A DNA stretch of 25,984 bases from an uncultured Rhodospirillaceae bacterium (lineage in GTDB: Bacteria; Pseudomonadota; Alphaproteobacteria; Rhodospirillales; JABHCV01). Below, piece by piece: positions 6,484-23,526 of the stretch. The notes under the pieces were generated by a model. That model made no database searches, was not told where the DNA came from, and worked only from the letters and a program-made list of their open reading frames with translations. Each line of letters begins with the position of its first letter. Position 1 is the stretch's first letter. Made by a program: the position numbers and the translations under genes. The DNA lies in assembly GCA_965613205.1 (NCBI GenBank), contig CBFDVE010000001.1, positions 1 through 25,984 on the forward strand, written 5' to 3'.

Positions 6484-7314
6484 ATGGAAAATCCACCCTC
6501 AAAAGCCGATTGGGATGACGCCTACGACAACGGCGGCCACATTGACGGGGCCGCTGGCTATGCGCCCAAATGGGCCAAACAGGCCCTGGCTTTTCGGGAT
6601 GCTTTGATGGCTGCCGGTCGGGCCGATCTGGACTTGGCCTATGGTCCGCAAGAGCGGGACAAACTGGATTTGTTCCGCCCCATTGGAACGGCCAGGGGGT
6701 TGGCGGTTTTTGCCCACGGTGGTTTCTGGAAAGCGTTCGACAAATCGACCTGGTCGCATTTGGCCGGGGGCGCGTTGGCCAGGGGCTGGGCCGTATGCGT
6801 ACCGAGCTACACTCTCGCCCCGCAGGCCCGGATCGGCCAGATCACCGATCAATTCGCCCGCGCGGTCCAGTTCGCCGCGCAACGTATCGAAGGCCCTATC
6901 CGCCTGGCCGGGCATTCGGCCGGCGGCCATCTGGTCTGCCGCATGGTCTGTCAGGACGGCCCTTTACAGATCGACATTTGGGGCCGCATCGAACATGTTT
7001 TGTCGATCAGCGGCGTCCACGATCTGCGCCCCCTGCGGCACACCACCATGAACGAAATTCTAGGCCTCGACGAGGCCGAGGCGGCGCGCGAAAGTGTCGC
7101 CCTGCACCGCCCGCTGGAACCCTGTTCGATCACCTGTTGGGTCGGGGCCGATGAGCGCCCGGCCTTTGTCGCCCAAAACGATTTACTGGCTCGAGTGTGG
7201 TCCGGTCCTGGAGCCATGACCGAGAGCGTTCATGCCCCAGGCAGACACCACTTCAATGTGATCGACGATTTGTGCGATCCCGAAACTGAACTGACCAAGG
7301 CATTCATCGGTTAG
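6484..7314 (+). CDS. Alpha/beta hydrolase, HSL/arylformamidase (kynurenine formamidase)-like, 276 aa
   Basis: HGGFW oxyanion motif, GHSAGGH nucleophile elbow, GADE acid, and HHFNV histidine. Confidence 0.85.
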   Translation: MENPPSKADWDDAYDNGGHIDGAAGYAPKWAKQALAFRDALMAAGRADLDLAYGPQERDKLDLFRPIGTARGLAVFAHGGFWKAFDKSTWSHLAGGALARGWAVCVPSYTLAPQARIGQITDQFARAVQFAAQRIEGPIRLAGHSAGGHLVCRMVCQDGPLQIDIWGRIEHVLSISGVHDLRPLRHTTMNEILGLDEAEAARESVALHRPLEPCSITCWVGADERPAFVAQNDLLARVWSGPGAMTESVHAPGRHHFNVIDDLCDPETELTKAFIG

Positions 7315-7892
7315 CGTAGGCCGTCTTCACCCTTCACATCGGCGGCTTCCAGGCCCCCCATGCGGCTGTGAATACGGGGGCCTTTCGACATCGCCAGGGC
7401 GAGCAACAATTCATCGTGACGGGGGCCATCGGAAACGCTGATTTCCATGGCGTCGAAATGGCTGCGCACGTAGGCGGCGTTGATGTGACCCAGGGGAATA
7501 TCGATGCGGGCACCGACCCCGCCGACCTTCATGGCCGAGGGCACAATGGCCTTGGCGACGCCCAGATGATCGCGCATCCCATAGCCCCCGGCCACATGCC
7601 ACAGCGCGGCATGTTCTATTTCACCACCTTCGCCACACAGGGCGGCCTTGCCATAGCCGTCGATCCCGTCGCCACCGCCAAGAGCGTCGATCAACATCTG
7701 GCTCATGGACAGGGCCAGGGGTTTCAAATCGTCCATGGCGCTTTGCAGGTCTTCGTGATAGCCGCCGGAAAACGGGTTTTTGACAATGGCGATGACGGCG
7801 GCGCGACGCCGTGGCGTGGCCGGTGGCGGTCCATTTTCATGATGAATTTCTTCGATGATTGTCATAGTTTTACGAAGAGTAAAATCAGCCAT
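7311..7892 (-). CDS. Amino acid synthesis family protein (DUF1185/PF06684), 193 aa
   Basis: Family-typical segments RKTMTIIEEIHHENGP, NPFSGGYHEDL, YGKAALCGEGGEIEH, AIVPS, IDIPLGHINAAYVRSHFD and GPRIHSRMGGL. Confidence 0.88.
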   Translation of the reverse strand: MADFTLRKTMTIIEEIHHENGPPPATPRRRAAVIAIVKNPFSGGYHEDLQSAMDDLKPLALSMSQMLIDALGGGDGIDGYGKAALCGEGGEIEHAALWHVAGGYGMRDHLGVAKAIVPSAMKVGGVGARIDIPLGHINAAYVRSHFDAMEISVSDGPRHDELLLALAMSKGPRIHSRMGGLEAADVKGEDGLR

Positions 7893-8736
7893 AGGCGCGG
7901 TCTCCTGTGTGTTCTGGGATCAGGACCGGCGACCCGACCTGACGAAATTGCCCTTGCAACATAAGCAGGGCTCCGGCGATGACATTGCGGTCGATCAGGG
8001 CGCTGGCGAATTGTTCACCGCCATCAAGGGCGTCGCAGACATCCCGTTCAGAGAGCGGCCCCACATATTCGGTCACCAAGCGGTCGCCCAGATCGCTGTC
8101 GGGAGCCATATGGCGAGCCGGAATTCTGGTGATCGCCGGGTGGCCCGGAAGATCAACCGCGTTGGCGATCAGGGTCGCCGCCGCATCGGCCCCGGCGGCA
8201 TTTGTCGCCACCACGGTGACCGCATCGGCGATGCCGAGCGAATGGCTGCGCCCCTGCCATCCCGATGTCGCCACGCCCCGGCTGTGATGCCGCTCGGTGA
8301 CGACGATCTTGCCAACCCGATCAGCGCCGATGGCGGCCTCGATAGATTGTCCGGGGGTGAGATAAAACGCCACATCGCCACCGTTGTTGACGATGATTTT
8401 CTCGATACCTCCCTGATCGTCCATGGCCGCCAGAATTTCATCGGCGACGGCCCCGGCGACGGCCGCCATGGGGGTGACAAAAGTCGCCAGCATGGGGATC
8501 ACGGCCTGTTGCATACGCCGCGCCACCGGGCCGTGGAACAAGCGATCCCGGTCTGCGGCCAGCCGCAATTCCGGCAACTCATGGACCAGTTCCTGCAACA
8601 AACCCCGAAACCGCCCCACGGCCAGATCGTAAGCGTCTTGCCGACCGGGGCCGATGGCCTCGATGATCAGATCAATCGGCCCTTCGTGCAAATGCAGTCG
8701 GCGGCCATCGGCCAGAATACTGGCTTCCAGGCCCAT
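7885..8736 (-). CDS. UPF0280 family protein (ApbE-like flavin transferase fold), cytoplasmic, 283 aa
   Basis: Motifs HEGPIDLII, TPMAAVAGAVAD, VNNGGD, GVATSG and ADAAATLIAN; no signal or lipoprotein peptide; TAATG overlap with hnr. Confidence 0.88.
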   Translation of the reverse strand: MGLEASILADGRRLHLHEGPIDLIIEAIGPGRQDAYDLAVGRFRGLLQELVHELPELRLAADRDRLFHGPVARRMQQAVIPMLATFVTPMAAVAGAVADEILAAMDDQGGIEKIIVNNGGDVAFYLTPGQSIEAAIGADRVGKIVVTERHHSRGVATSGWQGRSHSLGIADAVTVVATNAAGADAAATLIANAVDLPGHPAITRIPARHMAPDSDLGDRLVTEYVGPLSERDVCDALDGGEQFASALIDRNVIAGALLMLQGQFRQVGSPVLIPEHTGDRAYG

Positions 8737-10190
8737 TATTTCGGCCTTTTTGGAACGCCGACAGGCGGGGCAATGGTGCGCATACTGTCGCCGTATTCGC
8801 CGCCGCTGGCGATCACATCATCGATTGACCGGACCGACTGTTGATGACCGCCCAGATCCAGGTAATCGCCCCGCGCCACGGTGAATTCCAGGGGGGCGAC
8901 GATGGCCGGGGTCGGCACATAGCCGAACGAATTGTCGGGCATGTCGGCGACATCGACCATCAGGGTAATACCGCCGCCGGGCCAGATGTAGGCGGGCGCG
9001 CCGCCGCAGGTCACCCGAGTATTCTTTTTTTGCACGGACCGGGTCAGTTTGACCGGATTGCGGGTCGCCCCGGACCGCAAGGAGCCCCCGGCCCCGGCCA
9101 TGAACAACACGGTGCACAGGGAAGGTTCGCAGTTTTCCGAGATCAGATCGACTGACGCCCTGAGGTGTTCCGGTAAGTCCTGCAATAGGGGCACCAGATT
9201 GTCGTCGAGAACATAGTAGCTAAATTGCTCGCCGGTGGTTGATACCATCAACAGGCTCAGTCCGGGCCGGGCCCCTTTTTTAGCGTTCCAGGGGCCGAGA
9301 ATAACCAGCGGGTCTTCAATATCCGTGCCGCCCCAGCCCAGGCCCGGTTCGGCCACCCTGAAATAGCGGCCCGGTGTCGATCGCCGACCGAGAATTTTAA
9401 TACCGGTCGGCTGCCAGCCCAGCACCTTGCCCGCCTGGTGTTCGGAAACCACGCCGGTGATATGATCATCAACGACGACCACTTCATCGACCAGCCCCAA
9501 CCACTGAGACGCAAACATGCCGATGGTCGCCGAGCCGCAGCCGACCCGCATTCGGTGTTCCTGTTGGCCATCGACAATGGGCGCCTGGCCGGCCTCAACG
9601 ATAACGCTGGTGCCGCCATCAATGGTCAGTTCAACCGGTCGCTTGTTGCACAGATCCATCAGGGTTTTACACGTGGTATCGCCTTCCGCTCTGGAACCGC
9701 CGGTCAGATGATCGACGCCGCCGAGGGACAGCATTTGCGAGCCATACTCGCTGGTCATGATATGGCCGACGGCCTCACCAAAGGCGCGGACCGTGGCCCC
9801 TTCGTGACCCAGATGCCGGTCCGTATCGATTTTGATTTTAACGCCGCAGTAGGAATAAATGGCCTCGGTGACCACGGTGACAAAATCGACCCCGCCTAAA
9901 TCGCGGCTGACAATAAAGGGGGCCGGTTTGTAATCGGGATAGGTGGTTCCGGCGCCAACGGCAGTAACAAAAACATCCCGGCCCGCGACCACCCGGCCAT
10001 CCCAGGTGGATTTCAGAAACGGCACCACTTCGCCACCTTTTTCCAGGGTCTGGTCGAGGATGGTCAGGGGATCGCAGCGGATGATCTTGCCTTTTTCGTT
10101 GGCGTAGCGATCGCACGCCCCGGCCCGGCCCTCGGCCACATAGCACATTACCGGGCAGGCATCGCAACGGACTTTTTCGCCCGCACTCAT
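8736..10190 (-). CDS. hnr: 6-hydroxynicotinate reductase (Fe-S flavoprotein), 484 aa
   Basis: N-terminal CDACPVMC-x9-C cluster motif, plus GAGTTYPDYKPAPFI, MRVGCGSATIG and WPGGGIT; lies directly after the Mo hydroxylase (ATGA overlap). Confidence 0.88.
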   Translation of the reverse strand: MSAGEKVRCDACPVMCYVAEGRAGACDRYANEKGKIIRCDPLTILDQTLEKGGEVVPFLKSTWDGRVVAGRDVFVTAVGAGTTYPDYKPAPFIVSRDLGGVDFVTVVTEAIYSYCGVKIKIDTDRHLGHEGATVRAFGEAVGHIMTSEYGSQMLSLGGVDHLTGGSRAEGDTTCKTLMDLCNKRPVELTIDGGTSVIVEAGQAPIVDGQQEHRMRVGCGSATIGMFASQWLGLVDEVVVVDDHITGVVSEHQAGKVLGWQPTGIKILGRRSTPGRYFRVAEPGLGWGGTDIEDPLVILGPWNAKKGARPGLSLLMVSTTGEQFSYYVLDDNLVPLLQDLPEHLRASVDLISENCEPSLCTVLFMAGAGGSLRSGATRNPVKLTRSVQKKNTRVTCGGAPAYIWPGGGITLMVDVADMPDNSFGYVPTPAIVAPLEFTVARGDYLDLGGHQQSVRSIDDVIASGGEYGDSMRTIAPPVGVPKRPK

Positions 10191-12901
10191 GACCGCGCCT
10201 CGGCTAATTTGATGGCCGCCAATACCCGGTGGGGCACGGCGGGCAATCTCTCTATTCTGGCCCCGCAGGCGTCGGTGATGGCGTTGAGAATGGCCGGGGC
10301 GGTGGGGATCAGAACATGCTCGCCCAGGCCCTTGGCCCCCATGGGGCCTTCCGGGTCGGGCACTTCGATCAGGATCGACTGCACATGGGGCATGTCGCCG
10401 ACCGTCGGGATCAGGTAGTCGTGCAGGTTTTCCGTGCGGCCCGGTATATATTCTTCCATCAGGGCCATGCCCAGCCCTTGTGCCACGCCGCCTTCGATTT
10501 GCCCTTCCGACAGCAACGGGTTGATCACCCGGCCCAGATCATGGGCGGCGGTGACGCGGGTGACCTTGACCGTGCCAAGCACCGTATCGACTTCAATTTC
10601 AGCCAGTTGCGCACCGTAGCCATAGACGGCATAAGGGATGCCCTGACCGTTTTCATCGAGCGCCGAGGTGGGCGGGTCATAGGTTTCTTGCGCCCACAGA
10701 ACGTAGCCGTTGGCTTGCACCGGCAAGTTCAACAGATCGATTTCCCGCTCCGCCTCGCCGTCACTGATCAGCAGTCGCCCACTTTCCAGGTTCAGCCGGG
10801 CTTTCGGCCCTGAATTGCTTTCCCGCAAGATAGTCTGCCGCAATGAGAGGCCGGCCCGTTCCGCCGCCTTGCCGGTGATGAAGGTCTGGCGCGAGGCCGA
10901 TGTCTTGCCGCAATCGGGAGTCAGGGCGGTATCCGGGCCGATCAGCGAGAAGCTTTCAATAGCCATGCCAAGGGCATCGGCACATATCTGGGTGATCACC
11001 GTGTTGGCGCCCTGGCCGATATCCGTCGCCCCCTGGTGCAGACACAACCGGCCTGTCGCCGTAATGCCCAGCCGTACGGTTGATGGGTTCGGCAGCGCCG
11101 TATTGCCGCAGCCATACCAGCACGAGGCCACGCCGATACCCTTTTTCGTGGTTGCCGATGTGGCATTGAATTTTTCGATTTCGCTGTTTGCCTCCTGCCA
11201 TCTGGGGATCAGGGCGTCCAGGCAATCGCCGATACCAACGCCCTGCAAGGTTTGACCACAGACCGTGCTGTCGCCATTTCCGAGGGCGTTGAGGCGGCGA
11301 AATTCGAGCCGGTCCATGTCACAGGCGGCGGCCAGATCATCATAAATCATTTCCTGCAAGATTGCCGCCTGGGGTACACCGAAGCCGCGAAAGGCCCCGG
11401 ACACCGGGCCGTTGGTGTGCAAGGCGCGGGTCTCTGCCCGGTAATGAGGCGTCAGGTAAGGGCCTGAGGCATGGACTGGCACCCGGTTGGCCACGGTCGG
11501 CCCCCAACTGGCATAGGCACCGGTGTTGAAATCGCCATCAAACTCCATGCCGGTGATGCGACCGTTCTCGTCCGTGCCAATACGGGCCGACATTCTGCCC
11601 GGATGGCGCTTGGTGGTCGAGGCCATCGATTCCGCCCGGCTGTAAACCATGCGACAGGGTTTGCCCGTTTTCAGGGCCGCCAAACCGATAAGGGGTTGCA
11701 GGGAAACATCCAGCTTGGAGCCGAAGCCACCGCCTGTGGCGGCTGGAATAATGCGCACTTTATCCGGCGGCAGGGCCATCATGGCGGCGGTATCGTCCCG
11801 GTCCATGATCGGTGCCTGGGTACAGGCCTGAATGACCAGGGTGTCGCCATCGAGCCAGGCGCAACCGGCTTCCGGCTCGATATAGGCGTGTTCCACATAG
11901 GCGGTTTCGACCGAACGCTCGATAACGTGAGCCGACCCATCGAGCGCCCCGGCGGCGTCGCCGCTGACCACCCGGCCCCGAACCAGAATGTTGCCGGGCC
12001 TGCTGTCATGCAGTTGAGGGGAGTCTTCGGCCTGGGTCATGTCCAGGTTTTCAGGTAACGGTGTCCAGGTGACAGGAAAATTATCCAGATTTAATACCGA
12101 GACGGCGGCGGCGTCACCGACCACCAGGGCCACCGCCTCGCCACGAAACAGGGCGACTTTTTCGGCCAGGGCCGGTTGGTCGGCATAGGGCGGAATGACC
12201 CCGAAACAATTCCTGCCGGGGATATCCCTGGCCGTCAGCACGACCTCCACGCCCGGCGTATGCCGGCCCCACTGATCGAGATCACCGAAGCTGAATTGGC
12301 CGTGGTGATGGGGCGAGCGAACGGCCCGCACCAGCAGGGCATTGGCGGGCCAGTGATCGGCCCCGAATATTTCTGAGCCGTCTATTTTTGCCCTGCCGTC
12401 CAGCCGCTCAACTGGGGCACCGACGGCATTTCCGGCGGCCGGCAGGATCGCCTGGGGGTGACTATTGCCGGCATCAACAACGGCATCGACTATTTTTTGA
12501 TAGCCGGTACAGCGACACAGCACGCCGCCCAGGGCATCCGCCACCTGGGCCCGGCTGGGCGTTGGATGGGTCGCCAGCAGGGCGCTCGCCGCCATCAACA
12601 TTCCCGGTGTGCAAATACCGCATTGGGCCGCCCCGTGCCGGGCCAGTGACTCCTGCAAGGGAGATAATCCGTCTTGCGACAATCCTTCGACGGTCACGAC
12701 TGTGCGATCTACGGCCTGGGCCGCCGGTGTCAGGCAGGCATAGACGGCCTGGCCATCGATCATGACGGTGCAGGCACCGCAATCCCCGGCGTTGCAGCCG
12801 ACCTTGGTGCCGCGCAGGTCGAGATTTTCGCGCAGGAAATTACTGAGCCGCTGGCCCGGTGCGGTGATGGCGACCGATTTTCCGTTGACGGTGGTTTTCA
12901 T
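10187..12901 (-). CDS. Xanthine-oxidase-family Mo hydroxylase with fused 2x[2Fe-2S] and Moco domains; probable nicotinate dehydrogenase catalytic subunit (NdhS+L+M fusion), 904 aa
   Basis: Fe-S motifs GCNAGDCGAC, QCGICTPG and CRCTGY; Moco motifs GGGFGSK, GAFRGFG, GQG and KGLGE. Segment GVASCWYGCGNTALPNP resembles, from memory, the N-terminus of Eubacterium barkeri NdhM; adjacent to hnr. Confidence 0.85.
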   Translation of the reverse strand: MKTTVNGKSVAITAPGQRLSNFLRENLDLRGTKVGCNAGDCGACTVMIDGQAVYACLTPAAQAVDRTVVTVEGLSQDGLSPLQESLARHGAAQCGICTPGMLMAASALLATHPTPSRAQVADALGGVLCRCTGYQKIVDAVVDAGNSHPQAILPAAGNAVGAPVERLDGRAKIDGSEIFGADHWPANALLVRAVRSPHHHGQFSFGDLDQWGRHTPGVEVVLTARDIPGRNCFGVIPPYADQPALAEKVALFRGEAVALVVGDAAAVSVLNLDNFPVTWTPLPENLDMTQAEDSPQLHDSRPGNILVRGRVVSGDAAGALDGSAHVIERSVETAYVEHAYIEPEAGCAWLDGDTLVIQACTQAPIMDRDDTAAMMALPPDKVRIIPAATGGGFGSKLDVSLQPLIGLAALKTGKPCRMVYSRAESMASTTKRHPGRMSARIGTDENGRITGMEFDGDFNTGAYASWGPTVANRVPVHASGPYLTPHYRAETRALHTNGPVSGAFRGFGVPQAAILQEMIYDDLAAACDMDRLEFRRLNALGNGDSTVCGQTLQGVGIGDCLDALIPRWQEANSEIEKFNATSATTKKGIGVASCWYGCGNTALPNPSTVRLGITATGRLCLHQGATDIGQGANTVITQICADALGMAIESFSLIGPDTALTPDCGKTSASRQTFITGKAAERAGLSLRQTILRESNSGPKARLNLESGRLLISDGEAEREIDLLNLPVQANGYVLWAQETYDPPTSALDENGQGIPYAVYGYGAQLAEIEVDTVLGTVKVTRVTAAHDLGRVINPLLSEGQIEGGVAQGLGMALMEEYIPGRTENLHDYLIPTVGDMPHVQSILIEVPDPEGPMGAKGLGEHVLIPTAPAILNAITDACGARIERLPAVPHRVLAAIKLAEARS

Positions 12902-13731
12902 GGACCTGGTTCCAGGGCCTGGGCGATTACACGGCGGACAATTTCGACCGCCGCGCTGCGTCGATAATCGGCAGTGGCGCGAATATCGTCGATCGGCGAG
13001 AGCGGCCCATTGACCAGGTTTTCGGCAATCTGAAATGATCCGATTTGTTGGCCGATCAGCGCGGTTTCAAGGTCGTTCAGGCGCACGGCCACCGGGCTAC
13101 AGGAGCCGACCGAGATGGCGATATCTTCGATCAACCCGTCATTTTCGACCAGCCGCACGGCGGCCATGACGATGGAAATGACCAGGTATTTGCGCGACCC
13201 CAGCTTGATAAAACCCGACCTGCCCCGTGCCCCGGTTTCGGGCACCACAATGGCGCTGAGCAATTCATCATCACGCAAAACCGTCTGCCGGGGTCCGGTC
13301 AAAAAGTCAGCCAAAGGCAGGGTGCGGGTTGCGGCTTGTGAGCACAGCTCAACCGAGGCTTCAAGGGTCAACAACACCGGCACCCCATCGGCGGCGGGGG
13401 AGGCGTTGCACAAATTTCCGGCCAAAGTGGCGGCGTTCTGAATTTGCCGGGAGCCGATTTCCCGGGCACACAGCTTCAGGCCATCGAAGGCGGCGGGCAG
13501 TTTTTCGTTGATGATATCGGTCCAGGTGGTGGCCCCGCCAATGCGCCAGCCTTCGGCGGTCTGGCTGATGCCGCGCAGTTCTTGAATGGCCGTAATATCC
13601 AGCACCGAACCTTGCAAAACCGGGGCCGTTGTCGCCGCATAGATATCGGTGCCACCGGCGACCACCTGATGATGCTGTCGGGCGATTAAATCCAGCGCGT
13701 CTGATAAACTGTCGGGGCGTGAATAGGTCAA
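12898..13731 (-). CDS. FAD-binding subunit of the Mo hydroxylase (NdhF/CoxM-like), 277 aa
   Basis: Motifs VAGGTD, IGSRQIQNAATLAGNLCNASPAAD and SPIDDIRATADYR; TTG start; ATGA overlap with the Mo subunit. Confidence 0.9.
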   Translation of the reverse strand: MTYSRPDSLSDALDLIARQHHQVVAGGTDIYAATTAPVLQGSVLDITAIQELRGISQTAEGWRIGGATTWTDIINEKLPAAFDGLKLCAREIGSRQIQNAATLAGNLCNASPAADGVPVLLTLEASVELCSQAATRTLPLADFLTGPRQTVLRDDELLSAIVVPETGARGRSGFIKLGSRKYLVISIVMAAVRLVENDGLIEDIAISVGSCSPVAVRLNDLETALIGQQIGSFQIAENLVNGPLSPIDDIRATADYRRSAAVEIVRRVIAQALEPGP

Positions 13732-13741
13732 GGAGCACCCA

Positions 13742-13765
13742 ATTATTCATTCGTACACAAATGGA
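13742..13765. promoter_or_regulatory. Operator site 1 (probable NicR-like MarR box)
   Basis: Minus strand TCCATTTGTGTACGAATGAATAAT, 21/24 identical to 19687-19710; starts at the last base of the ndhF -10 box and covers the predicted start site. Confidence 0.7.
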
Positions 13766-13793
13766 TTTTGCGACGGCACTCATTTCGTGTCAA
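13765..13793 (-). promoter_or_regulatory. Sigma70 promoter of the ndhF-ndh-hnr operon
   Basis: Perfect TTGACA (13793-13788), 17-nt spacer, CAAAAT (13770-13765). Confidence 0.7.
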
Positions 13794-13812
13794 CATCCAT
13801 TATATCTGCTAT

Positions 13813-14271
13813 ATGGCATCCATGAACGGCAAACCGGAGAGACAAGATTTGGCCAACAAGACCAACGCCTATCGGCTCAACGATCAGGTTGGATTTATCC
13901 TGCGCCGGGCAACACAAAGGCATCTGGCGATTTTCGCCAACCATATCGGTGATTTGACCTCGACCCAGTTTGCCGCCCTGGCCAAATTGCACGAAATCGG
14001 CCCGGTATCGCAAAACGAACTGGGCCGCCAGACCGCCATGGACGGGGCCACCATCAAGGGCGTCATCGACCGGCTGCGTAAACGAGGGTACGTGGAATCA
14101 AGGTCAGATGCTAACGACCGGCGGCGCATCTTCGTCGAACTGAACCCGGCCGGGCACAAGATTTACCAGGATTGCGTCGATGCCGCCCACGAGATTTCAG
14201 GCAAGACCCTGGCCCCCTTAACTGCCAGGGAAAGCGAGACTTTTCTCAATTTGCTCAGGAAAATCACCTAA
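13813..14271 (+). CDS. nicR: MarR-family regulator, NicR/BpsR-like
   Basis: YRLNDQVGFILRRATQRHLAIF...LTSTQFAAL...SQNELGRQTAMDGATIKGVIDRL...DRRR; divergent from the ndh operon. Start at ATG 13813 or 13822, no SD seen. Confidence 0.8.
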   Translation: MASMNGKPERQDLANKTNAYRLNDQVGFILRRATQRHLAIFANHIGDLTSTQFAALAKLHEIGPVSQNELGRQTAMDGATIKGVIDRLRKRGYVESRSDANDRRRIFVELNPAGHKIYQDCVDAAHEISGKTLAPLTARESETFLNLLRKIT

Positions 14272-14282: not shown

Positions 14283-14909
14283 ATGAATAGCGAAAATACG
14301 GCGCTTCTGATGATCGACATTCAAAATGACTTCTGCCCCGGCGGTGCCCTGGCGGTGGCCGATGGCGACGCTGTGGTGCCCGTGACCAACCGCTTGCAGG
14401 ATCATTTCCCGGTCCGCGTACTGACCCAGGACTGGCACCCGGCGGATCATTCTTCTTTTGCCGCCAATCACTTGAACACCGAGCCCTTTTCCGTCATGGC
14501 CATGTCCTACGGCGATCAGGTGTTGTGGCCCAACCACTGCGTTCAGGGCAGTTCCGGTGCGCAATTTCACCGTAATCTGGTTACCGAGACCGCCCACATA
14601 GTTGTCCGCAAGGGCTATAATTCCACTATTGACAGCTATTCCGCATTTTTCGAAAACGACCACAAAACCAAAACCGGCCTGGCCGGATTGCTGAACGACC
14701 TGGGGATTGAAAGTGTTGTCCTGACCGGCCTGGCGATGGATTTTTGCGTCTGCTACACGGCCCTGGATGCGGTCGATCTGGGCTTTGGTGTGACCCTGGT
14801 TAGCGATGGGTGCCGGGCTATCGATCTGGACGGGTCCCTGGACGGGGCGATGAAATCCATGACTGATCGAGGCGTCACCTTCGCCACCAGCGCCGAGTTG
14901 CTGGCCTAA
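14283..14909 (+). CDS. pncA: Nicotinamidase/pyrazinamidase, 208 aa
   Basis: Motifs IDIQNDF, QDWH, WPNHC, RKG and GLAMDFCV; AAGGA SD 11 nt after the nicR stop region. Confidence 0.93.
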   Translation: MNSENTALLMIDIQNDFCPGGALAVADGDAVVPVTNRLQDHFPVRVLTQDWHPADHSSFAANHLNTEPFSVMAMSYGDQVLWPNHCVQGSSGAQFHRNLVTETAHIVVRKGYNSTIDSYSAFFENDHKTKTGLAGLLNDLGIESVVLTGLAMDFCVCYTALDAVDLGFGVTLVSDGCRAIDLDGSLDGAMKSMTDRGVTFATSAELLA

Positions 14910-15613: not shown

Positions 15614-16326
15614 CAACGGGTCCCCAGATAGGCGGCCTGAACATCGCCGTTGGCATGAATTTCGTCTGGTTTGCCCTCGGCCAGGATTTCACCAAAATTG
15701 AGCACGCTAATGTAGTCGGCGGTCTGCATGACCACGTTCATATTGTGTTCGATCAGCAAAATGGTGGTTTCGTGGGCGATGGAGCGGACCAGGGTGACGA
15801 AATCTTCAATTTCGCTGTCGGCCAGGCCCTGGGTCGGTTCATCCAGGATCAACAGGCGCGGTTTCTGGCCCAGGCCCATGGCGATTTCCAGCAACCGCTG
15901 GTGGCCGTAGCTTAAATCACCGGCGATCTGGCTGACCCGGTCGGCCATACCGACGGCGTCAAGGGCGGCGATCACCTGGGCATCGATGGCCGCCCGGTCA
16001 TTGCCCAGTCGCCGCTGCACGGCCAGGGCGACATTTTCGTGGCACGACAACCTGGCGAAAATGGATGTGATCTGGAAAGTGTAGGCCATGCCCATGGCAA
16101 TTCGATCATGGGCGGCCAGGGCGGTGACATCTTCGCCCAAAAACGTGACCCGCCCTTCCGACGCCGCAATGCGACCGCAGAGCAAATTGACGAAGGTGGT
16201 TTTACCCGCCCCGTTGGGTCCGATCAAGGCCCTGATCTGGCCTTCGGGTAAATCAAAGTCAACATCGTGGACCGCCTTCAAGCCGCCGAAGTTGCGGCCG
16301 AGGCCTGTTGTCGAGATCAGGTTCAT
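15613..16326 (-). CDS. livG: Liv-type ABC transporter ATP-binding protein (LivG-like)
   Basis: Motifs GPNGAGKT, LSYGHQR, ILDEP and IEHNM; ATG 16326 in an ATGA overlap. Confidence 0.92.
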   Translation of the reverse strand: MNLISTTGLGRNFGGLKAVHDVDFDLPEGQIRALIGPNGAGKTTFVNLLCGRIAASEGRVTFLGEDVTALAAHDRIAMGMAYTFQITSIFARLSCHENVALAVQRRLGNDRAAIDAQVIAALDAVGMADRVSQIAGDLSYGHQRLLEIAMGLGQKPRLLILDEPTQGLADSEIEDFVTLVRSIAHETTILLIEHNMNVVMQTADYISVLNFGEILAEGKPDEIHANGDVQAAYLGTR

Positions 16327-17267
16327 GGCAGCCATGGCGCCAGCCTTTTACGCACCTCACCGACCAGCCCCTGGCGGGCGAACAGGGTCAGCAAGACCAG
16401 GGCGACCCCGGCGATCAGCATGTAGGCGCTGGTAACGGCGCTGGAAAGATCAATCAGATAGAACATGAACAGCACACCCATGAACGGCCCCAGCGTGGTT
16501 CCGGCCCCGCCCAGCAAGACCCACAGCAGGGGAAAGATCGAATATTCGACGGTGGCGAAGGTCGCCCCGGCATAGCCGAACAGCAGCCCGTAGGTGGCCC
16601 CGGCGGCACCGGATATAACGCCGGAAAGAATAACCGCGATCAGCTTGTGGCGGAACACATTGAAACCCAACATGCGGACCCGGTCTTCGTTTTCCCGGAT
16701 TGCTACCAGCACCCGGCCCAGGTTGGAGCGCACCAGCACCAGCGAAATGATCAGGCAGGTGCCGAACAGGACCAGGGCGGCATAGTAGCGTGAGACGGGA
16801 TCGGAAAGGTCAATACCGGCAAAGACCCGCTGGCTTTGCTGAATGACAAATCCTTCGTCGCCCCGGGTGTATTGACCGAACAGCAGCACCGTCAGATAAC
16901 CGGCCTGGGCGAACATCAGGGTGACGATCATAAAAGCGACACCGGTCGTGCGCAGGGCCAGAAACCCGACCACCGAAGTCACCACCAAAGCGGCCAGCAG
17001 TCCGGCCAGCAAGGCCGGTCCCGGCGAAAGCCCTAGAAACTGGATCGACAACCCCATGCCGTACATGCCGCTGGCGAAAAACAGCGCGTGGCCGAGGCTG
17101 AGCAATCCGGTGTAGCCAAACAGGATGTTGTAGCCAATGGCATAGGACGCCAGCACCATAATGCGGGCCAGATTGCCATGGTGATAGGCGGGCAGGACCG
17201 ATTGCAAGGCGAACAAGACGATAATCACGCCGCCATGCAAGAGCCAGGATTTTGCCCCGTCGGTCAT
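16323..17267 (-). CDS. livM: Liv-type ABC transporter permease (LivM-like), 314 aa
   Basis: Motifs GYTGLLSLGHALFF, AIRENEDR and LLGGAGT with multiple hydrophobic helices. Start at ATG 17267 (ATGA overlap), not the ORF-track start at 17984. Confidence 0.9.
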   Translation of the reverse strand: MTDGAKSWLLHGGVIIVLFALQSVLPAYHHGNLARIMVLASYAIGYNILFGYTGLLSLGHALFFASGMYGMGLSIQFLGLSPGPALLAGLLAALVVTSVVGFLALRTTGVAFMIVTLMFAQAGYLTVLLFGQYTRGDEGFVIQQSQRVFAGIDLSDPVSRYYAALVLFGTCLIISLVLVRSNLGRVLVAIRENEDRVRMLGFNVFRHKLIAVILSGVISGAAGATYGLLFGYAGATFATVEYSIFPLLWVLLGGAGTTLGPFMGVLFMFYLIDLSSAVTSAYMLIAGVALVLLTLFARQGLVGEVRKRLAPWLP

Positions 17268-18145
17268 ACCGGGCGCTTCCCGAACAAGCCTTGCGGCCGG
17301 AACACCAGAACCGAGGCGACCAGCAGGGTGGCCAAAATTTTGGCCAGCGTTGGCGAGAAAAAGACCGAAATAATGCCATCGCTCATGCCGATCAGCACGG
17401 CGGCGACCACCGTTCCCCGCAGGCTGCCAAGGCCACCCAGGATAACAACGATGAAAGACAGCAGCAGTGGGTCGCCACCCATCAGGTAGTGGGCCTGCTG
17501 AATGGGAACGATCAGCACGGCGGCCATGGCCGCCAGTCCGGCGCCGACGCCGAAGACAATGCTGTACACCCGTTTGACCCGGATGCCGAAGGCCTGGGCG
17601 ATATCGCTGTCGAGCTGGGTGGCCCGCAAAATCAGGCCGATGCGGGTCTTGCTGACCGTCGCCCAAACCCCCAACAGCAACACGATAGCGGCCCCGATAA
17701 CGAACAGTTTGTAGCCCGAATAGCCGAACCAGGGGAGGGTAATGCGAATGTTGAAGGGCGGCGGCACGGGCCGCGCATCGGGGCCGTAAGTCATTAGAGT
17801 GACTTGCTGAATGATGTAAAGAACGCCGATGGTGGCGACGATGGTCGCTTCCGGATCGTAATCCAGCCGCTTTAAAATGGTCCAGTCGATGGCGGCAGCC
17901 AACAACCCGGTCACGATCGGCACGATAATCAGCGCCAGCACGAAACCGATTGAGGCATCGCCGCCGACCTGGGAGGTCAGCCACCAGGCCAGCACGGCAC
18001 CGAGCATAAAAAATTCACCGTGGGCGATATTGACCACCCGCATGGTGCCGAACACCAGACTCAGGCCAACGGCGGTCAGGGCCAGCACAGCCGCCTGCAC
18101 CGCGCCTTCCAGCGAGGCGAGCAAAAGATAAGGGCCTAATTCCAT
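17264..18145 (-). CDS. livH: Liv-type ABC transporter permease (LivH-like), 293 aa
   Basis: Motifs GLSLVFGTMRVVNIAHGEF and VILGGLGSLRG; hydrophobic. Confidence 0.92.
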   Translation of the reverse strand: MELGPYLLLASLEGAVQAAVLALTAVGLSLVFGTMRVVNIAHGEFFMLGAVLAWWLTSQVGGDASIGFVLALIIVPIVTGLLAAAIDWTILKRLDYDPEATIVATIGVLYIIQQVTLMTYGPDARPVPPPFNIRITLPWFGYSGYKLFVIGAAIVLLLGVWATVSKTRIGLILRATQLDSDIAQAFGIRVKRVYSIVFGVGAGLAAMAAVLIVPIQQAHYLMGGDPLLLSFIVVILGGLGSLRGTVVAAVLIGMSDGIISVFFSPTLAKILATLLVASVLVFRPQGLFGKRPV

Positions 18146-18156
18146 TTAGCGAAAAC

Positions 18157-18188
18157 GAAGGTCACGGCCGGTCGAGGCCGTGACCTTC
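18157..18188 (-). terminator. Intercistronic hairpin (attenuating or mRNA-stabilising) after the binding-protein gene
   Basis: Perfect 13-bp stem GAAGGTCACGGCC / GGCCGTGACCTTC with a 6-nt loop, followed by GTTTT on the minus strand. Confidence 0.7.
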
Positions 18189-18195
18189 TCTATCA

Positions 18196-19500
18196 TCAGA
18201 ACGATTGCTTGGTGTAATCGACTTCATCGGGATAGTAGGTATCCTCGATTGACGTGGTATGGGCCAGCACCAGTTTCTGGTTGGTCACCTTGGTGATGTA
18301 TTGATGACCGAAGACCTGATGGGTCTTGCCGTTAAAGCGTTTGGCCCCCTGGGGATGCTGGCGCGAATGGGCCATGTCGGACATCGCCTCGACCGCTTCT
18401 ATCAGCTTGGCCCGGTCTTTCGGCCCCCGGTACCCGGAAGCTTCCATGCCGGCTTTAATCACATAGAGCGTTTCCCAACAACCAAACATATGAGCGTAGG
18501 TGGCGACATCCTTGGAGTCAGCCAGGGAAGCGCCATTGTTGTCGACCCCAACCGAGGCGCGGAAGAATTTGTCGTATTCCGACTGGTTGGATTGGGCATA
18601 ACGGGGATTGCCTTCCCAGAAATAGGTGCCTTCCAGGAATTCCAGCCCCGGACTGGCCAGATCGACCGCTTCGAGACTATCAATAAAGCCAAAGATTTCG
18701 GGCCGTTTGGAGCCGAAGAATTCACCCAGTTCCTTGACGAATGTCAGCACCGCTGGCCCGACCATGACATGGTAGATGACTTCCGTTTCCTTGGGGATTT
18801 TGGGGAAGTATTTGGTGAATGATGATTCTCTCGGCGGGATGGCGATTTTGGCGATCACATCGCCGCCGATCTTTTCAATGGCGGCGGAGAAATAATCCCG
18901 GTGATCGTAGCCGAAGGCGAAGTCGGGGAAAATCATGGTGACTTTCTTGCCCAGGTTTTTGGCCACAAACGGGGCCATCGCCTGAACCTGACTTTTGACA
19001 TCGGTAATGCCCGGTTGCAGGGTGTAGCGATTAAGTATACCGCTGGCCACATGATGGCCTTCGGAAACCACGAAATAGGGCAATTTCAGTTCACCCGCTC
19101 GCGGGGCCGAGCCGATCACGACGTGGCTGAACAAGGTGCCGAAACCGACATCGCAGTTGAGCTGATTGGCAAATTTTTCGACCACTTCGGCACCGCGCTT
19201 GGGCGAGGTTCCATCATCTTCGGCGATGATTTCGACCCTGCGGCCATTGATGCCACCGCCCGCGTTGATGACTTTTGCCGCCGCTGCGGTGGTGCGACCG
19301 TACCATTTGCCATAGGCGGCACCGATACCGGTGCGATGAACCTGAAAACCAATTTTTATGGGTTCGGCGCTGTGCACCTGATTGTAGCCGATCAGGCCCG
19401 GAAATGCCGTGGCGCCGGCAATGACCCCGGCACCCGCGCCAAGGGTCTTCAAGACTTTGCGGCGGTCCTGCACGCTTGATTTGATTATTTTTTTGGTCAT
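18196..19500 (-). CDS. ABC substrate-binding protein (LivK-like PBP1 fold) with a Tat signal peptide, 434 aa
   Basis: N-terminal DRRKVLK twin-arginine motif plus hydrophobic stretch; GGINGRRVEIIAEDDGT; GGAGG SD; tandem stops TGA TGA TAG. Confidence 0.9.
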   Translation of the reverse strand: MTKKIIKSSVQDRRKVLKTLGAGAGVIAGATAFPGLIGYNQVHSAEPIKIGFQVHRTGIGAAYGKWYGRTTAAAAKVINAGGGINGRRVEIIAEDDGTSPKRGAEVVEKFANQLNCDVGFGTLFSHVVIGSAPRAGELKLPYFVVSEGHHVASGILNRYTLQPGITDVKSQVQAMAPFVAKNLGKKVTMIFPDFAFGYDHRDYFSAAIEKIGGDVIAKIAIPPRESSFTKYFPKIPKETEVIYHVMVGPAVLTFVKELGEFFGSKRPEIFGFIDSLEAVDLASPGLEFLEGTYFWEGNPRYAQSNQSEYDKFFRASVGVDNNGASLADSKDVATYAHMFGCWETLYVIKAGMEASGYRGPKDRAKLIEAVEAMSDMAHSRQHPQGAKRFNGKTHQVFGHQYITKVTNQKLVLAHTTSIEDTYYPDEVDYTKQSF

Positions 19501-19535
19501 TTTGTTGTCCTCCCTAAAAGCAGTTTGTCACCTGT

Positions 19536-19579: not shown

Positions 19580-19583
19580 TTTT

Positions 19584-19620
19584 TACACAAATAGCCAAGG
19601 GCATATTGTGTGTACACAAA
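19584..19620. promoter_or_regulatory. Two partial copies of the NicR-like box flanking the ABC -10 element
   Basis: Minus strand TTTGTGTACAC (19620-19610), which includes most of the perfect palindrome TGTGTACACA (19609-19618), and ATTTGTGTA (19592-19584). Confidence 0.5.
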
Positions 19621-19631
19621 CAACTTGTCCA
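19603..19631 (-). promoter_or_regulatory. Candidate sigma70 promoter of the ABC operon
   Basis: TGGACA (19631-19626), 17-nt spacer, CAATAT (19608-19603); the operator-like box lies in the spacer. Confidence 0.5.
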
Positions 19632-19686
19632 GAAAAATATTTACCGCCACCGCGCCCCCTATTGACTTTACTTCGCCATTACGGCT

Positions 19687-19710
19687 TTCATTTGTATACC
19701 AATGAATAAT
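19687..19710. promoter_or_regulatory. Operator site 2 (probable NicR-like MarR box) upstream of hydantoinase A
   Basis: TTCATTTGTATACCAATGAATAAT; the first 20 nt are an 18/20 palindrome; 21/24 identical to site 1. Confidence 0.7.
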
Positions 19711-19729
19711 AACAATGAGGCGGTATTCC

Positions 19730-21790
19730 ATGACAGGGTCCGGTTCGGCACAGGTGGTCGGTGTGGATGTCGGCGGAACCTTCACTGACCTGGTCATGCT
19801 CGACCAGAAATCCGGCCAGGTGCGCCTGGCCAAGGCCCCGAGCACGCTGGATAATCAGGCCTTCGGCGTGCTCGCTGCCTTAGATCAGGCGGGGACCGAT
19901 TTACGCAGGGTCAATTTGATTGTCCATGGCACCACCACCACCACCAATGCGGTACTGGAACGCAAATTGTGCAGGGTCGGCCTGATCACCACCGCCGGAT
20001 TTCGCGATGTGCTGGAACTGGGCCGCCGGACCAGACCGCAAGCCTATGGCATGACCGGCAAATTCCGCCCGGTGATCGCCCGCAATCTGCGCCTGGAAGT
20101 GGCCGAACGCATGGACGCTGGTGGGCAAATCGTGACGCCGCTCGATGAAGCCGCCGTCAAGGTCGCCGCCAAGCGCCTGATCGAGAAGGACTGCGAGGCC
20201 ATCGTTATTCACTTCCTGCACGCCTACGCCAACCCGGCCCACGAGCTTCGGGCGGCGGAAATTGTCGGTCAAATGTGGCCCAATGATTACATCACCATGG
20301 GCCACACCCTGCTATCGGAAAGCCGCGAGTTCGAGCGCGGCGTGACGGCGGCGATCAATGCTTCCGTCCAGCCCCTGCTGGAACGCTATATTTCGAAACT
20401 GGTGCAGGAACTGGCCCATAGGGGCTACCACGGTGAAATGCTGGTGATGAACGGCAACGGCGGCATGGTGTCGTCCCGGCGGGTCGCCAAAGAGGCGGCC
20501 AAAACCGTCATGTCGGGCCCCGCCTCGGGGGTCATTGCGGCGGCCTATACGGGCCGCAAGGCCGGCATTGCCGATCTGATCACTTATGACATGGGCGGCA
20601 CGTCCACCGATGTGGCGCTGATCCGCAATTTCGAGCCGTCCGTTTCCAGCGAAATCGAAATCGAATACGCCATGCCGATCCATGTGCCGATGATCGATGT
20701 GCGCACGGTGGGGGCCGGTGGCGGCTCTATCGCCAGGGTCAATTCCGCCGGATTGCTGGAAGTCGGCCCGGAAAGTGCCGGGGCCCATCCCGGCCCGATC
20801 AGTTATGGACAGGGCGGTGAATTGCCAACCATATCGGACGCTAACCTGTTGCTCGGTCGCCTGAACACGGGAAAAATGAACGCGGTGCAAGGCAATGTCG
20901 CCATCGATCACATCAAGGACATTTTCGCCACTAAATTAGGCCGGCCTCTGGGCCTGGATGCAATCCTGGCCGCCGCCGCCGTGATCCGGGTCGCCAACAC
21001 CAAAATGGGCGGGGCGATCCGCATGGTCTCGGTATCGTTGGGTCTGGACCCCAGGGATTTTGCCCTGTTTGCCTTTGGCGGGGCCGGACCCCTGCACGCC
21101 ACGGCACTGGCCCGCGAGCTCGGCGTGCCACAAGTGCTGGTGCCGTGCCGACCGGGCATCACCAACGCGCTCGGCTGCGTCGTCGCCGATTTACGCCACG
21201 ATTTCGTCAATACCCTGAACAAGCCGCTGGATCTGGTCGATATGGATGAGGTCCACGCCCTGTTCAACAGCCAGATCGCCGAGGGCGAAAAATTGATCGG
21301 CAATGAAGTGATCGAGATCAGGTCGATCAAACGGTTGCACAGCGTCGATATGCAGTTTATCGGCCAGACCCATTTGTTGCGTGTGCCGCTGCAATCCACA
21401 ACGCCCGACCGGGAAACCTTGCGGCGCCTTTTTGAAGACGTCTATTTCGCGCGCTTCCGGGTCGAACTGGATGACATTAGAGCCAATCTGGTCAACGTCA
21501 ACACGTCGGTAATCGGCGTCCGGGCGGAACTTGATCTGTCCATCCTGATCGATCCGGCGGGTCGAAAAGAAACCCTGGAGGAGGCCAAAACAGAAAACCG
21601 CCCGGCCTATTTTCTTGGGCAGTGGCAGGACACCCCGGTCTACTGGCGGGATTTTCTGCCCCTTTCGTTTACCCTGACCGGTCCGGCAATTATCGAGCAA
21701 ATGGATACCACCATCCTGATCGAACCGGGCGACACCGCCGAAGGGGACGTTCATGGCAATATCATTATTTCCATCGGGGCGCGCTTGTGA
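19730..21790 (+). CDS. Hydantoinase/oxoprolinase family ATP-binding subunit (HyuA/OplA-like), 686 aa
   Basis: Motifs DVGGTFTD, HGTTTTTNA, SGPASG, DMGGTSTDV, GAGGGSI and FGGAGPLHA; GAGG SD before ATG 19730. Confidence 0.93.
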   Translation: MTGSGSAQVVGVDVGGTFTDLVMLDQKSGQVRLAKAPSTLDNQAFGVLAALDQAGTDLRRVNLIVHGTTTTTNAVLERKLCRVGLITTAGFRDVLELGRRTRPQAYGMTGKFRPVIARNLRLEVAERMDAGGQIVTPLDEAAVKVAAKRLIEKDCEAIVIHFLHAYANPAHELRAAEIVGQMWPNDYITMGHTLLSESREFERGVTAAINASVQPLLERYISKLVQELAHRGYHGEMLVMNGNGGMVSSRRVAKEAAKTVMSGPASGVIAAAYTGRKAGIADLITYDMGGTSTDVALIRNFEPSVSSEIEIEYAMPIHVPMIDVRTVGAGGGSIARVNSAGLLEVGPESAGAHPGPISYGQGGELPTISDANLLLGRLNTGKMNAVQGNVAIDHIKDIFATKLGRPLGLDAILAAAAVIRVANTKMGGAIRMVSVSLGLDPRDFALFAFGGAGPLHATALARELGVPQVLVPCRPGITNALGCVVADLRHDFVNTLNKPLDLVDMDEVHALFNSQIAEGEKLIGNEVIEIRSIKRLHSVDMQFIGQTHLLRVPLQSTTPDRETLRRLFEDVYFARFRVELDDIRANLVNVNTSVIGVRAELDLSILIDPAGRKETLEEAKTENRPAYFLGQWQDTPVYWRDFLPLSFTLTGPAIIEQMDTTILIEPGDTAEGDVHGNIIISIGARL

Positions 21791-23526
21791 GCATAGATCC
21801 GATCACGCTGAGCGTTATTCAGGCCGGGTTGCAACAGGTTTGCGACGAAATGGATTTGAGCTTTTCCCGCGCCGCCTTCTCGCCGGTCATATCCGAAGCC
21901 AATGACCGGTCGGACGGCATCTACGCGGCCACCGATGGCGCCCTGATCGCCCAGGGGGCCGGGGGCTTGCCCATCTTTGTCGGCACCATGCAGTATTCGA
22001 CCCGCACCCTGATAGAAATGATCGCGGCGGGCACGGTGTCGCCGCCAAAACCTGACGACATATATATCGTTAACGATCCTTACCTGGGCGGCACCCATCT
22101 GATGGATGTTCGTTTCGCCCGGCCTTTTTATCGCGACGGCGAAATTTATTGCTGGCTGTCCAATACCGGTCATTGGCCCGATACGGGCGGCTCGGTGCCG
22201 GGTGGGTTTTCCGCCTCGGCCACGGCGGTCGAACAGGAAGGCCTGCGACTGCCGCCCGTGCGCCTGTTCAAGCAAGGGCAACTGGACAGGGAAATCTATT
22301 CGATCATCTGTTCCAACATCCGGGTTTCCGATCAGCGCATTGGCGATGTTAAAGCCCAGGCCGCCGCCCTGATCACCGGCGAAGAACGTTTGAACGAGTT
22401 GCTGGACCGCTACGGTGACGACACGGTCACCGACGCCATCGAAGAACTGCGCCGCCGCGCCGCCACCCAGATGCGGGCCTGTATTGCCACCATTGCCGAC
22501 GGCACATATACATCGACCGCCTATATCGACAGCGACGGGGTCGATAACACGCCGCTGGAAATCAATCTGGAAATCACCAGGGCGGGTGACGACCTGACCT
22601 TTGATTTCAACAAATCGAGCCCGCCCTGCAAGGGCCCCATGAATTCGGTTCTGGCGACCACCCTCAGTTCGGTCTACCTGGCCATGCGCCATATATTTCC
22701 CGAAGTCCCGATCAGCGCCGGGGCGTTCGAACCTTTGCAGGTGATCCGTCCGGCGGGAACTTTTCTCGATGCTCACTATCCGCGGCCCGTGTCGGGCTGT
22801 GCGGCGGAAGTTTCCCAGCGTATCGCCGAAGCGGTGTTCGCGGCCCTGATCAAAGCCCTGCCCGACCGGGTAACGGCGGCACCGGCGGGCACCAGCGGCA
22901 ATTTTGCCCTCGGCGGGCATGACCCGGAGGCGGGCAAGGATTTCGTCATGTATCAACTGACCGGCGGCGGCTATGGCGGCAACGCCGATCACGACGGCCT
23001 GACCAACGGCTGTTCGACCATCGGCATTTCCAAATCCCCACCGGTGGAAATTATGGAACAAACCTATCCGGTGCTTTATCACCACTACGCCCTGCGCCAA
23101 GGGTCCGGCGGGGCCGGGGCACAGCGCGGCGGGTTCGGCCTGGATTACGAAGTGGAATTGCGGCGCGGCCATGCGCTCGCCAGTTTCGTCATGGACCATG
23201 GCCGGTTCGGCCCGCAAGGGGCCCTGGGGGGGGGTGACGGGGCGTGTAATAAAGTGGTGGTCAAACGGGGTGGCAAATCCTATACACCGGTTCATCTGTC
23301 GAAAGAACAGGATATCCCCCTGCAACCGGGAGATCGGGTGCATGTGCAAACCCCCGGCGGCGGCGGTTACGGCGACCCGTTTTCCAGGCCCGCCGAGGCG
23401 GTTCTGGAAGACGTTATCCTGGAACGCTACACCGCCACCCAGGCCCGCGACTTGTTTGGTGTCGTTATTAGTGGCGAGCCGCTTTCGGTAGATCAGGAAG
23501 AAACGTCACGATTGCGCGAAGAATAA
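21787..23526 (+). CDS. Hydantoinase B/oxoprolinase family metal-binding subunit (HyuB/OplB-like), 579 aa
   Basis: Motifs DEM, AFSPVISEAND, NDPYLGGTHLMD, GHWPDTGG and TPGGGGYGDP; GTG start in a GTGA overlap with the subunit A stop. Confidence 0.93.
   Translation: MSIDPITLSVIQAGLQQVCDEMDLSFSRAAFSPVISEANDRSDGIYAATDGALIAQGAGGLPIFVGTMQYSTRTLIEMIAAGTVSPPKPDDIYIVNDPYLGGTHLMDVRFARPFYRDGEIYCWLSNTGHWPDTGGSVPGGFSASATAVEQEGLRLPPVRLFKQGQLDREIYSIICSNIRVSDQRIGDVKAQAAALITGEERLNELLDRYGDDTVTDAIEELRRRAATQMRACIATIADGTYTSTAYIDSDGVDNTPLEINLEITRAGDDLTFDFNKSSPPCKGPMNSVLATTLSSVYLAMRHIFPEVPISAGAFEPLQVIRPAGTFLDAHYPRPVSGCAAEVSQRIAEAVFAALIKALPDRVTAAPAGTSGNFALGGHDPEAGKDFVMYQLTGGGYGGNADHDGLTNGCSTIGISKSPPVEIMEQTYPVLYHHYALRQGSGGAGAQRGGFGLDYEVELRRGHALASFVMDHGRFGPQGALGGGDGACNKVVVKRGGKSYTPVHLSKEQDIPLQPGDRVHVQTPGGGGYGDPFSRPAEAVLEDVILERYTATQARDLFGVVISGEPLSVDQEETSRLREE

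Follow-up and report, generated by a model that had tools for sequence, protein, structure and literature searches.

A HyuAB-type ATP-dependent lactamase as the predicted substitute for enamidase in an alphaproteobacterial nicotinate catabolism locus

Introduction

How is the ring opened in a reductive nicotinate pathway whose gene cluster lacks enamidase? This question is raised by a locus of an uncultured Rhodospirillaceae bacterium (assembly GCA_965613205.1, contig CBFDVE010000001.1), of which we analyzed positions 1 to 25,984 of the forward strand; this whole stretch of 25,984 nucleotides is termed the window below. In the reductive pathway of Eubacterium barkeri, as far as it is summarized in PMC3511419 from Alhapel 2006, the first three steps are catalyzed by the nicotinate dehydrogenase NdhFSLM, the 6-hydroxynicotinate reductase Hnr and enamidase (Ena). 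The window codes for homologs of the first two enzymes and, in place of the third, for a protein pair of the hydantoinase/oxoprolinase family, HyuA-HyuB.

A preliminary description of the window had listed pncA, ndhF, a fused ndhSLM, hnr, an ABC importer and a NicR-like regulator, had noted that enamidase is absent, and had proposed that HyuAB replaces it. Open reading frames (ORFs) and domain scans place all of the named genes where that description had them, though it overlooked a UPF0280 family gene at 7885-8736 on the minus strand. We consider it quite likely that these genes form a regulon for the uptake and catabolism of nicotinamide and nicotinate, of the reductive type that proceeds via 1,4,5,6-tetrahydro-6-oxonicotinate (THON), with HyuAB opening the ring in place of enamidase. 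The evidence is comparative: the distribution of the two enzymes across genomes, the catalytic motifs of HyuAB, the operonic linkage of hyuAB with hnr and a shared operator.

Mutually exclusive occurrence of HyuAB and enamidase

Neither domain scans nor an enamidase seed (L106:16204-17403, a full-length match to the PDB 2VUN ‘enamidase’ with E 1.5e-111, taken from a related cluster) recovered an enamidase or another amidohydrolase among the matches in the window. Searched against the whole assembly (2.77 Mb, 498 contigs, 86% complete), the best match of the seed was only HutI (E 2.6e-4). This genome contains eight Amidohydro_1 matches: seven are named by NCBIfam as 8-oxoguanine deaminase, guanine deaminase, HutF, dihydropyrimidinase, HutI, dihydroorotase and cytosine deaminase, and the eighth is a 207-amino-acid fragment with no NCBIfam name.

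The preliminary description had set beforehand, as a check on its proposal, that ena and hyuAB should exclude each other across genomes with hnr. For this census an evenly drawn sample of 400 alphaproteobacterial genomes was searched with Hnr, HyuB and the enamidase seed, with orthologs called at ≥63% identity for HyuB and at ≥70% identity to the seed for Ena. Hnr is present in 63 genomes (16%), which fall into two classes: 38 possess a HyuB ortholog without an Ena ortholog, and 25 possess an Ena ortholog without a HyuB ortholog; no genome combines the two, and none lacks both. The association is also tight in the other direction, with Hnr found in 25 of the 26 genomes that have an Ena ortholog and in 38 of the 41 that have a HyuB match at ≥61% identity. 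One of the three exceptions to the latter (G297) is a contig-end artefact, its contig ending in hyuB-hyuA-marR-DUF1185-UPF0280, and the other two (family f144; 59-61% identity by tblastn), in which the match lies beside a distant molybdenum hydroxylase, resemble a sister system. A sister HyuAB clade was observed at 58-61% identity in two loci (L152 from genome G342 and L153 from G192), where the neighboring molybdenum hydroxylase is 27-30% identical to NdhSLM and Hnr is absent; this clade may represent another N-heterocycle route using an ATP-dependent lactamase.

The same dichotomy was recovered in a second genome set, namely the whole genomes behind 50 of the 80 nearest hnr loci. A HyuB ortholog is present in 49 of them (74-83% identity, with paralogs at ≤49%), and the sole genome without one (G032) has an Ena ortholog of 73% identity, as predicted blind. 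No Ena ortholog was found in four HyuB-bearing genomes, namely a Mesorhizobium cantuariense record and three assemblies of a single contig each, including the Nitratireductor aquimarinus F7 chromosome; one of the four is titled as a complete genome. These results bear on a competing explanation, under which an enamidase is encoded in the 14% of the present genome that escaped assembly, with HyuAB having an accessory or unrelated role here. The 498 contigs and 86% completeness of the assembly leave room for such a gene, and we nonetheless hold this explanation to be very unlikely, as an Ena ortholog occurs in none of the 38 genomes with both HyuB and Hnr, most of which are at least 96% complete, nor in the four further genomes just described.

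In a maximum-likelihood tree of 60 Hnr proteins the two states are interleaved: at least 10 changes between Ena and Hyu type are required (mean of 18 with shuffled labels), at least four of which are forced by branches with Shimodaira-Hasegawa-like approximate likelihood ratio test (SH-aLRT) support ≥95. Well-supported sisters of opposite type are seen in families f171 (L102/L129) and f52 (L106 versus L115/L135), and within a mostly Ena-type clade the Hnr of the window forms a group with two further Hyu-type sequences. Such repeated replacement, with no coexistence and no loss of both, is the hallmark of a single function undergoing non-orthologous displacement. The exchange appears to extend beyond a single gene: a second DUF1185 paralog (DUF1185b), which often adjoins ena, is present in 16 of 22 Ena-type loci versus one of 38 and none of 80 Hyu-type loci in two counts. 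Because of these counts, the exchanged module can be described as ‘DUF1185b + ena’ versus ‘hyuA + hyuB’. We think it probable that HyuAB is a THON lactamase, and hence acts on a new substrate class, and that it has displaced ‘DUF1185b + enamidase’ at least 10 times in Alphaproteobacteria, which would make ring opening ATP-driven and effectively irreversible.

Two side observations concern the Ena-type loci. DUF1185b, exemplified by L090:12343-12912 and its equivalents in L091-L108, may work together with enamidase. In the vicinity of Ena-type hnr clusters, an oxygenase of the Rieske/VanA type was repeatedly encountered (L102:2967-4034 and five other loci); as a candidate N-demethylase or hydroxylase, it could feed into the pathway.

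Sequence features of HyuA and HyuB

The hyuA gene (19715-21790, plus strand) codes for the ATP-binding subunit, of the ASKHA fold, of the ATP-dependent lactamase family, with the domains Hydant_A_N, Hydantoinase_A and Hydant_A_C; hyuB (21790-23526, plus strand) codes for the metal-dependent hydrolytic subunit (Hydantoinase_B, E 1.2e-157). The GTG start of hyuB overlaps the TGA stop of hyuA, so that the two form a translationally coupled pair, divergent from the gene for the solute-binding protein (SBP) of the importer. HyuA displays the three ATP motifs of ASKHA proteins, DVGGTFTD at residue 18, DMGGT at 292 and GAHPGP at 356, all of which are kept in 36 of the 36 orthologs examined. HyuB residues D39, H103, D106 and H128 align with D41, H99, D102 and H124 of CapB, metal ligands that matter in caprolactamase (PMC8453981), and this D-H-D-H site is kept in 27 of the 27 orthologs examined. 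Both subunits of the window thus have intact catalytic motifs.

The best PDB match of HyuA is the N-methylhydantoinase 7hk5 (388 bits), with the caprolactamase CapAB (6yra_A) at 358 bits; HyuB matches CapB with 280 bits and carboxylases much more weakly, with 128 and 59 bits. Accordingly placed beside lactam hydrolases (CapAB and N-methylhydantoinase) rather than carboxylases in these comparisons, HyuAB is predicted to share their general chemistry. An alternative is that HyuAB is an ATP-dependent carboxylase, comparable to acetone or acetophenone carboxylase, acting on a pathway intermediate. Such enzymes belong to the same superfamily and CapAB itself requires bicarbonate (PMC8453981), but the carboxylase scores lie far below the 280 bits to CapB and no extra carboxylase subunits are present, which renders this alternative exceedingly improbable.

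At the level of orthology, HyuAB scores 484 and 329 bits versus cutoffs of 1000 in the caprolactamase models NF050156 and NF050157. With scores this far below the cutoffs, HyuAB is not a caprolactamase ortholog and constitutes a distinct orthologous group; further HyuB homologs within the same genomes are ≤49% identical to it, and the nearest Hnr-less sister group is 57-63% identical. HyuB and CapB share 38% identity and the template has a resolution of 4 Å, a combination that is uninformative for the comparison of pocket residues.

Linkage of hyuAB with hnr and a shared operator

Within the 10 kb flanks of the 80 nearest hnr loci, HyuA and HyuB orthologs (56-79% identity) are found in 16; since hyuA and hnr are 9.5 kb apart in the window, most hyuAB copies are expected to lie outside such a flank. 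About 30 of the 49 HyuB orthologs of the second genome set lie ≤20 kb from hnr, provided that the numbered contig is the record holding the locus. Fusion of hyuAB with the hnr operon is seen in a wider sample of hnr loci, in 10 of which hyuA-hyuB comes immediately after hnr-UPF0280(-DUF1185) in the same orientation. Other arrangements include: three loci (L001, L003, L004) with hyuAB on the strand opposite the ndh-hnr operon, 4.3-4.4 kb off, each with a MarR2 match; and a split system (genome G370; L158, L144) in which ndhF-ndhSLM-hyuA-hyuB form one operon and hnr-UPF0280-marR lies 1.4 Mb away. A separate case is that of genome G124 (L117, L155, L156) and also G420, with hyuA in the hnr cluster and the only HyuB ortholog found 1.4 Mb off and containing an in-frame TGA; here the system may be split or in decay.

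The preliminary description had also reported a near-identical site upstream of hyuAB and of the ndh operon. This site indeed stands out: the 24-mer ATTATTCATTSGTAYACAAATGRA has exactly two copies in the window, identical at 21 of 24 positions, with 0 matches in 100 shuffles. The first copy (ATTATTCATTCGTACACAAATGGA; 13742-13765, plus strand) lies between the divergent ndhF and marR, and the second (ATTATTCATTGGTATACAAATGAA; 19687-19710, minus strand) precedes the hyuA ORF by 5 nt. For the core TACACAAA, the window has three occurrences versus 0.21 expected, all of them inside these two intergenic regions, and two TACACAAA half-sites (at 19584 and 19613) occupy 19584-19620 on the plus strand of the SBP/hyuA intergenic region. 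A promoter scan yielded a number of sites not above chance.

The operator is palindromic around GTAYAC and recurs upstream of ndhF and beside hyuA in two related loci (L001, L004); related sites lie upstream of hyuA in five (L001, L037, L052, L068, L075), and a TTATTAGTATACAAATGA version is situated about 150 nt upstream of hyuA in loci of Pseudaminobacter, Chelativorans and Mesorhizobium. Across 141 sequences (140 loci and the window), a degenerate core is enriched 20-26 fold upstream of ndhF, marR, SBP and hyuA relative to whole loci. From this shared and conserved operator, co-regulation of hyuAB and the ndh operon is a well-supported inference, and the MarR protein, which possesses a winged helix-turn-helix domain, is predicted to be the cognate regulator of the conserved palindrome at these promoters.

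These linkages further bear on the possibility that HyuAB lies near nicotinate genes by chance and acts as an ordinary 5-oxoprolinase or hydantoinase, as its Pfam and automatic names (hydantoinase/oxoprolinase) would have it. Against that possibility stand the presence of Hnr in 38 of the 41 genomes with HyuB at ≥61% identity versus 16% of all genomes, the operon fusions of hyuAB with both hnr and ndh, and the shared operator; we regard it as extremely unlikely. Replacement of enamidase by HyuAB, as proposed in the preliminary description, gains strong comparative support from several directions: the exclusivity, the ≥10 switches, the 10 hnr operons, the conserved operator and the prediction for G032 all point to it.

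Other genes of the locus

The genes ndhF, ndhSLM, hnr, UPF0280 and DUF1185 are close-packed on the minus strand with overlapping stops and starts. The first, ndhF (12898-13731), codes for the flavin adenine dinucleotide (FAD) subunit of nicotinate dehydrogenase (FAD_binding_5 and CO_deh_flav_C in Pfam), and the fused ndhSLM (10187-12901) for its 2Fe-2S and molybdopterin subunits (Fer2, Fer2_2, the hammerhead domain Ald_Xan_dh_C, MoCoBD_1 and MoCoBD_2). Their combined domain composition is that of a molybdenum nicotinate dehydrogenase, for which nicotinate specificity is predicted. The product of hnr (8736-10190; P0001) is a 484-amino-acid protein with a cysteine-rich N-terminus, to which a Pfam scan assigned no family. 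It has thousands of close homologs, and the named ones (75-78% identity) are annotated as 6-hydroxynicotinate reductase; it is 59-69% identical to the Hnr proteins of clusters with a 2VUN-type enamidase.

The UPF0280 gene lies between hnr and DUF1185 (NF003322, 334 bits versus a cutoff of 290). It is a near-universal partner of hnr, being present in about 130 of 140 hnr loci, and a weak match to PDB 2o34 was observed for its product. The Hnr of E. barkeri carries a covalently bound flavin, and UPF0280 may be an Hnr maturation factor. The last gene of the operon codes for a DUF1185 protein (7311-7892; PF06684, AA_synth, E 1.7e-64; PDB 3byq/2qtp ‘DUF1185’), found in 64 of the 80 nearest hnr loci. 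The operon ends there against a convergent gene, as the preliminary description had it; this is an esterase gene (6484-7314, plus strand), and the two 3' ends overlap by 4 nt.

Divergent from ndhF is the gene for the NicR-like MarR-family regulator (13768-14271, plus strand; MarR/MarR_2 domains), kept in 58 of the 80 nearest loci. It is followed on the same strand by the nicotinamidase gene pncA (14283-14909; NF008623, 225.6 versus a cutoff of 174), whose ATG start at 14283 is 11 nt past the marR stop. A Liv-type ABC importer spans 14906-19500 on the minus strand. It comprises: a LivF-like (14906-15616) and a LivG-like (15613-16335) ATPase, a pair with ABC_tran and BCA_ABC_TP_C domains; a LivM-like permease (BPD_transp_2), the ORF of which covers 16323-17984 with the true start probably near 17270; a LivH-like permease (17264-18145; BPD_transp_2); and the periplasmic SBP (18196-19500; Peripla_BP_6), with orthologs of 64-86% identity in hnr loci.

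The flanks of the window contain genes that we do not assign to the system. At 34-6481 on the minus strand is an unrelated cluster coding for an AMP-dependent ligase, an acyl-CoA dehydrogenase, an enoyl-CoA hydratase, a MarR protein and an 803-amino-acid FAD-monooxygenase/Old-Yellow-Enzyme fusion; among the 80 related loci it is not conserved beside hnr, save for weak AMP-ligase matches (24-30% identity) in three. Downstream of hyuB is a gene for a methyltransferase of the MttB superfamily without pyrrolysine (24212-25801, plus strand; TIGR02369, 280 versus a cutoff of 525). It was considered as a cluster-linked trigonelline (N-methylnicotinate) demethylase and dropped, being excluded from the system because no ortholog is found in five close relatives. 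Recurrent clusters of ORFs without a Pfam match in the 80 nearest loci are taken to be shadow ORFs in GC-rich DNA; in the case of L040:3-992 this reading rests on its position opposite the expected hyuA.

A predicted pathway and its implications

Taken together, these components suggest the following scheme. PncA would convert nicotinamide to nicotinate, NdhF/NdhSLM would convert nicotinate to 6-hydroxynicotinate, and Hnr would convert the latter to the cyclic enamide THON, each of these steps being assigned by homology to the described pathway (PMC3511419). HyuA would then activate the lactam oxygen of THON with ATP and HyuB would hydrolyze the activated lactim at its metal site, giving 2-formylglutarate and ammonium either directly or via an enamine; we infer this step, including THON as substrate, the use of ATP and the product, from the complementarity with enamidase and the chemistry of the family (PMC8453981). 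Through the 24-nt palindromic operator, a MarR-type repressor would bring the ndh-hnr operon, marR-pncA, the importer and hyuAB under common control. A possible rationale for the swap is that ATP coupling might make ring opening irreversible at low substrate concentration. DUF1185 adopts a chorismate-mutase-like fold, as do RidA-type deaminases; more speculatively, the retained DUF1185 may finish the reaction by hydrolyzing the ring-opened enamine.

Several points weigh against this scheme. The substrate of HyuAB is not readable from homology at scores of 484 and 329 bits versus 1000; hyuAB lies 25-400 kb from hnr in many genomes; the census genomes are related by kinship and so are not independent samples; and the absence of enamidase from this organism is not proven because its genome is 86% complete. 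Further, four HyuB-bearing genomes (G100, G273, G219, G122) code on other contigs for a distant amidohydrolase that is 37-44% identical to Ena. This amidohydrolase (observed in the same four genomes and in G417 and G359) is unlinked to hnr and occurs in genomes with and without Hnr; as it is seen in an Hnr-less genome and also alongside a true Ena, it is treated as a separate subfamily and as a remaining caveat.

The first of these points opens the way to a different assignment: HyuAB could belong to the nicotinate regulon and open a lactam other than THON (e.g. the further-reduced 6-oxopiperidine-3-carboxylate), or act with DUF1185 and UPF0280 in a chemically different route. Not only is its substrate not readable from sequence, its closest characterized relatives also act on saturated lactams such as caprolactam, and the sister clade (58-61%), located beside a molybdenum hydroxylase without Hnr, implies that such enzymes can serve other heterocycles. 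On the other hand, HyuAB is in a strict either/or relationship with enamidase, whose substrate is THON, the same Hnr orthologs are retained by both types and interleaved on one tree, and no extra reductase was seen to recur in Hyu-type loci. We therefore deem this different assignment unlikely, and the either/or pattern together with the interleaved Hnr orthologs suggests that HyuAB acts at the same step as enamidase, with THON as the predicted substrate.

Literature combining hydantoinase, oxoprolinase or caprolactamase with nicotinate, THON, enamidase, 2-formylglutarate or DUF1185 yielded no description of the swap, in a search without the texts of Alhapel 2006 and Kitts 1992; this agrees with the preliminary description, which knew of no characterized variant of this kind. 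Hence, the Ndh-Hnr-Ena cluster is known and its HyuAB version appears to be new and is computationally well supported. If correct, our proposal would account for the ‘missing enamidase’ of about 60% of the sampled alphaproteobacterial Hnr-type nicotinate clusters, including clusters from marine Rhodobacterales, SAR116 and soil Mesorhizobium. It would likewise provide a function for a large and consistently mis-named ‘hydantoinase/oxoprolinase’ group, extend the substrates known for ATP-dependent lactamases to a carboxylated enamide lactam, and furnish a clear-cut example from nature in which a hydrolytic step is repeatedly exchanged for an ATP-coupled one. It also defines an operator for the regulon and suggests testable roles for DUF1185 and UPF0280.

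Comparison with known systems

The closest described counterpart of the locus is the proteobacterial Ndh-Hnr-Ena cluster, which is known from Azorhizobium caulinodans, Bradyrhizobium and strain SG-6C and has been described with an ABC transporter and two unknown proteins (PMC3511419). In comparison, the window lacks enamidase and the second DUF1185 paralog, has hyuA-hyuB instead, and adds pncA behind marR.

NicR, a member of the MarR family, is the repressor of the Pseudomonas putida nic cluster. Like it, the MarR-type gene of the window is divergent from nicotinate hydroxylase genes; the likeness is one of family and gene layout, and the predicted operator in the window is the 24-nt palindrome around GTAYAC.

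Among characterized lactamases, HyuAB resembles CapAB of Pseudomonas jessenii (PDB 6YRA; PMC8453981) in its two subunits, ASKHA motifs, D-H-D-H site and full-length alignment (358 and 280 bits). It differs from CapAB in falling below the equivalog cutoffs, in its nicotinate context and in its proposed substrate, a carboxylated six-membered enamide lactam. By analogy with N-methylhydantoinase (PDB 7HK5) and the 5-oxoprolinase OplAB, which belong to the same family, ATP-driven lactam hydrolysis would be the family chemistry; unlike 7HK5, in which the A and B parts are fused, HyuA and HyuB of the window are separate subunits and are placed in a distinct orthologous group.

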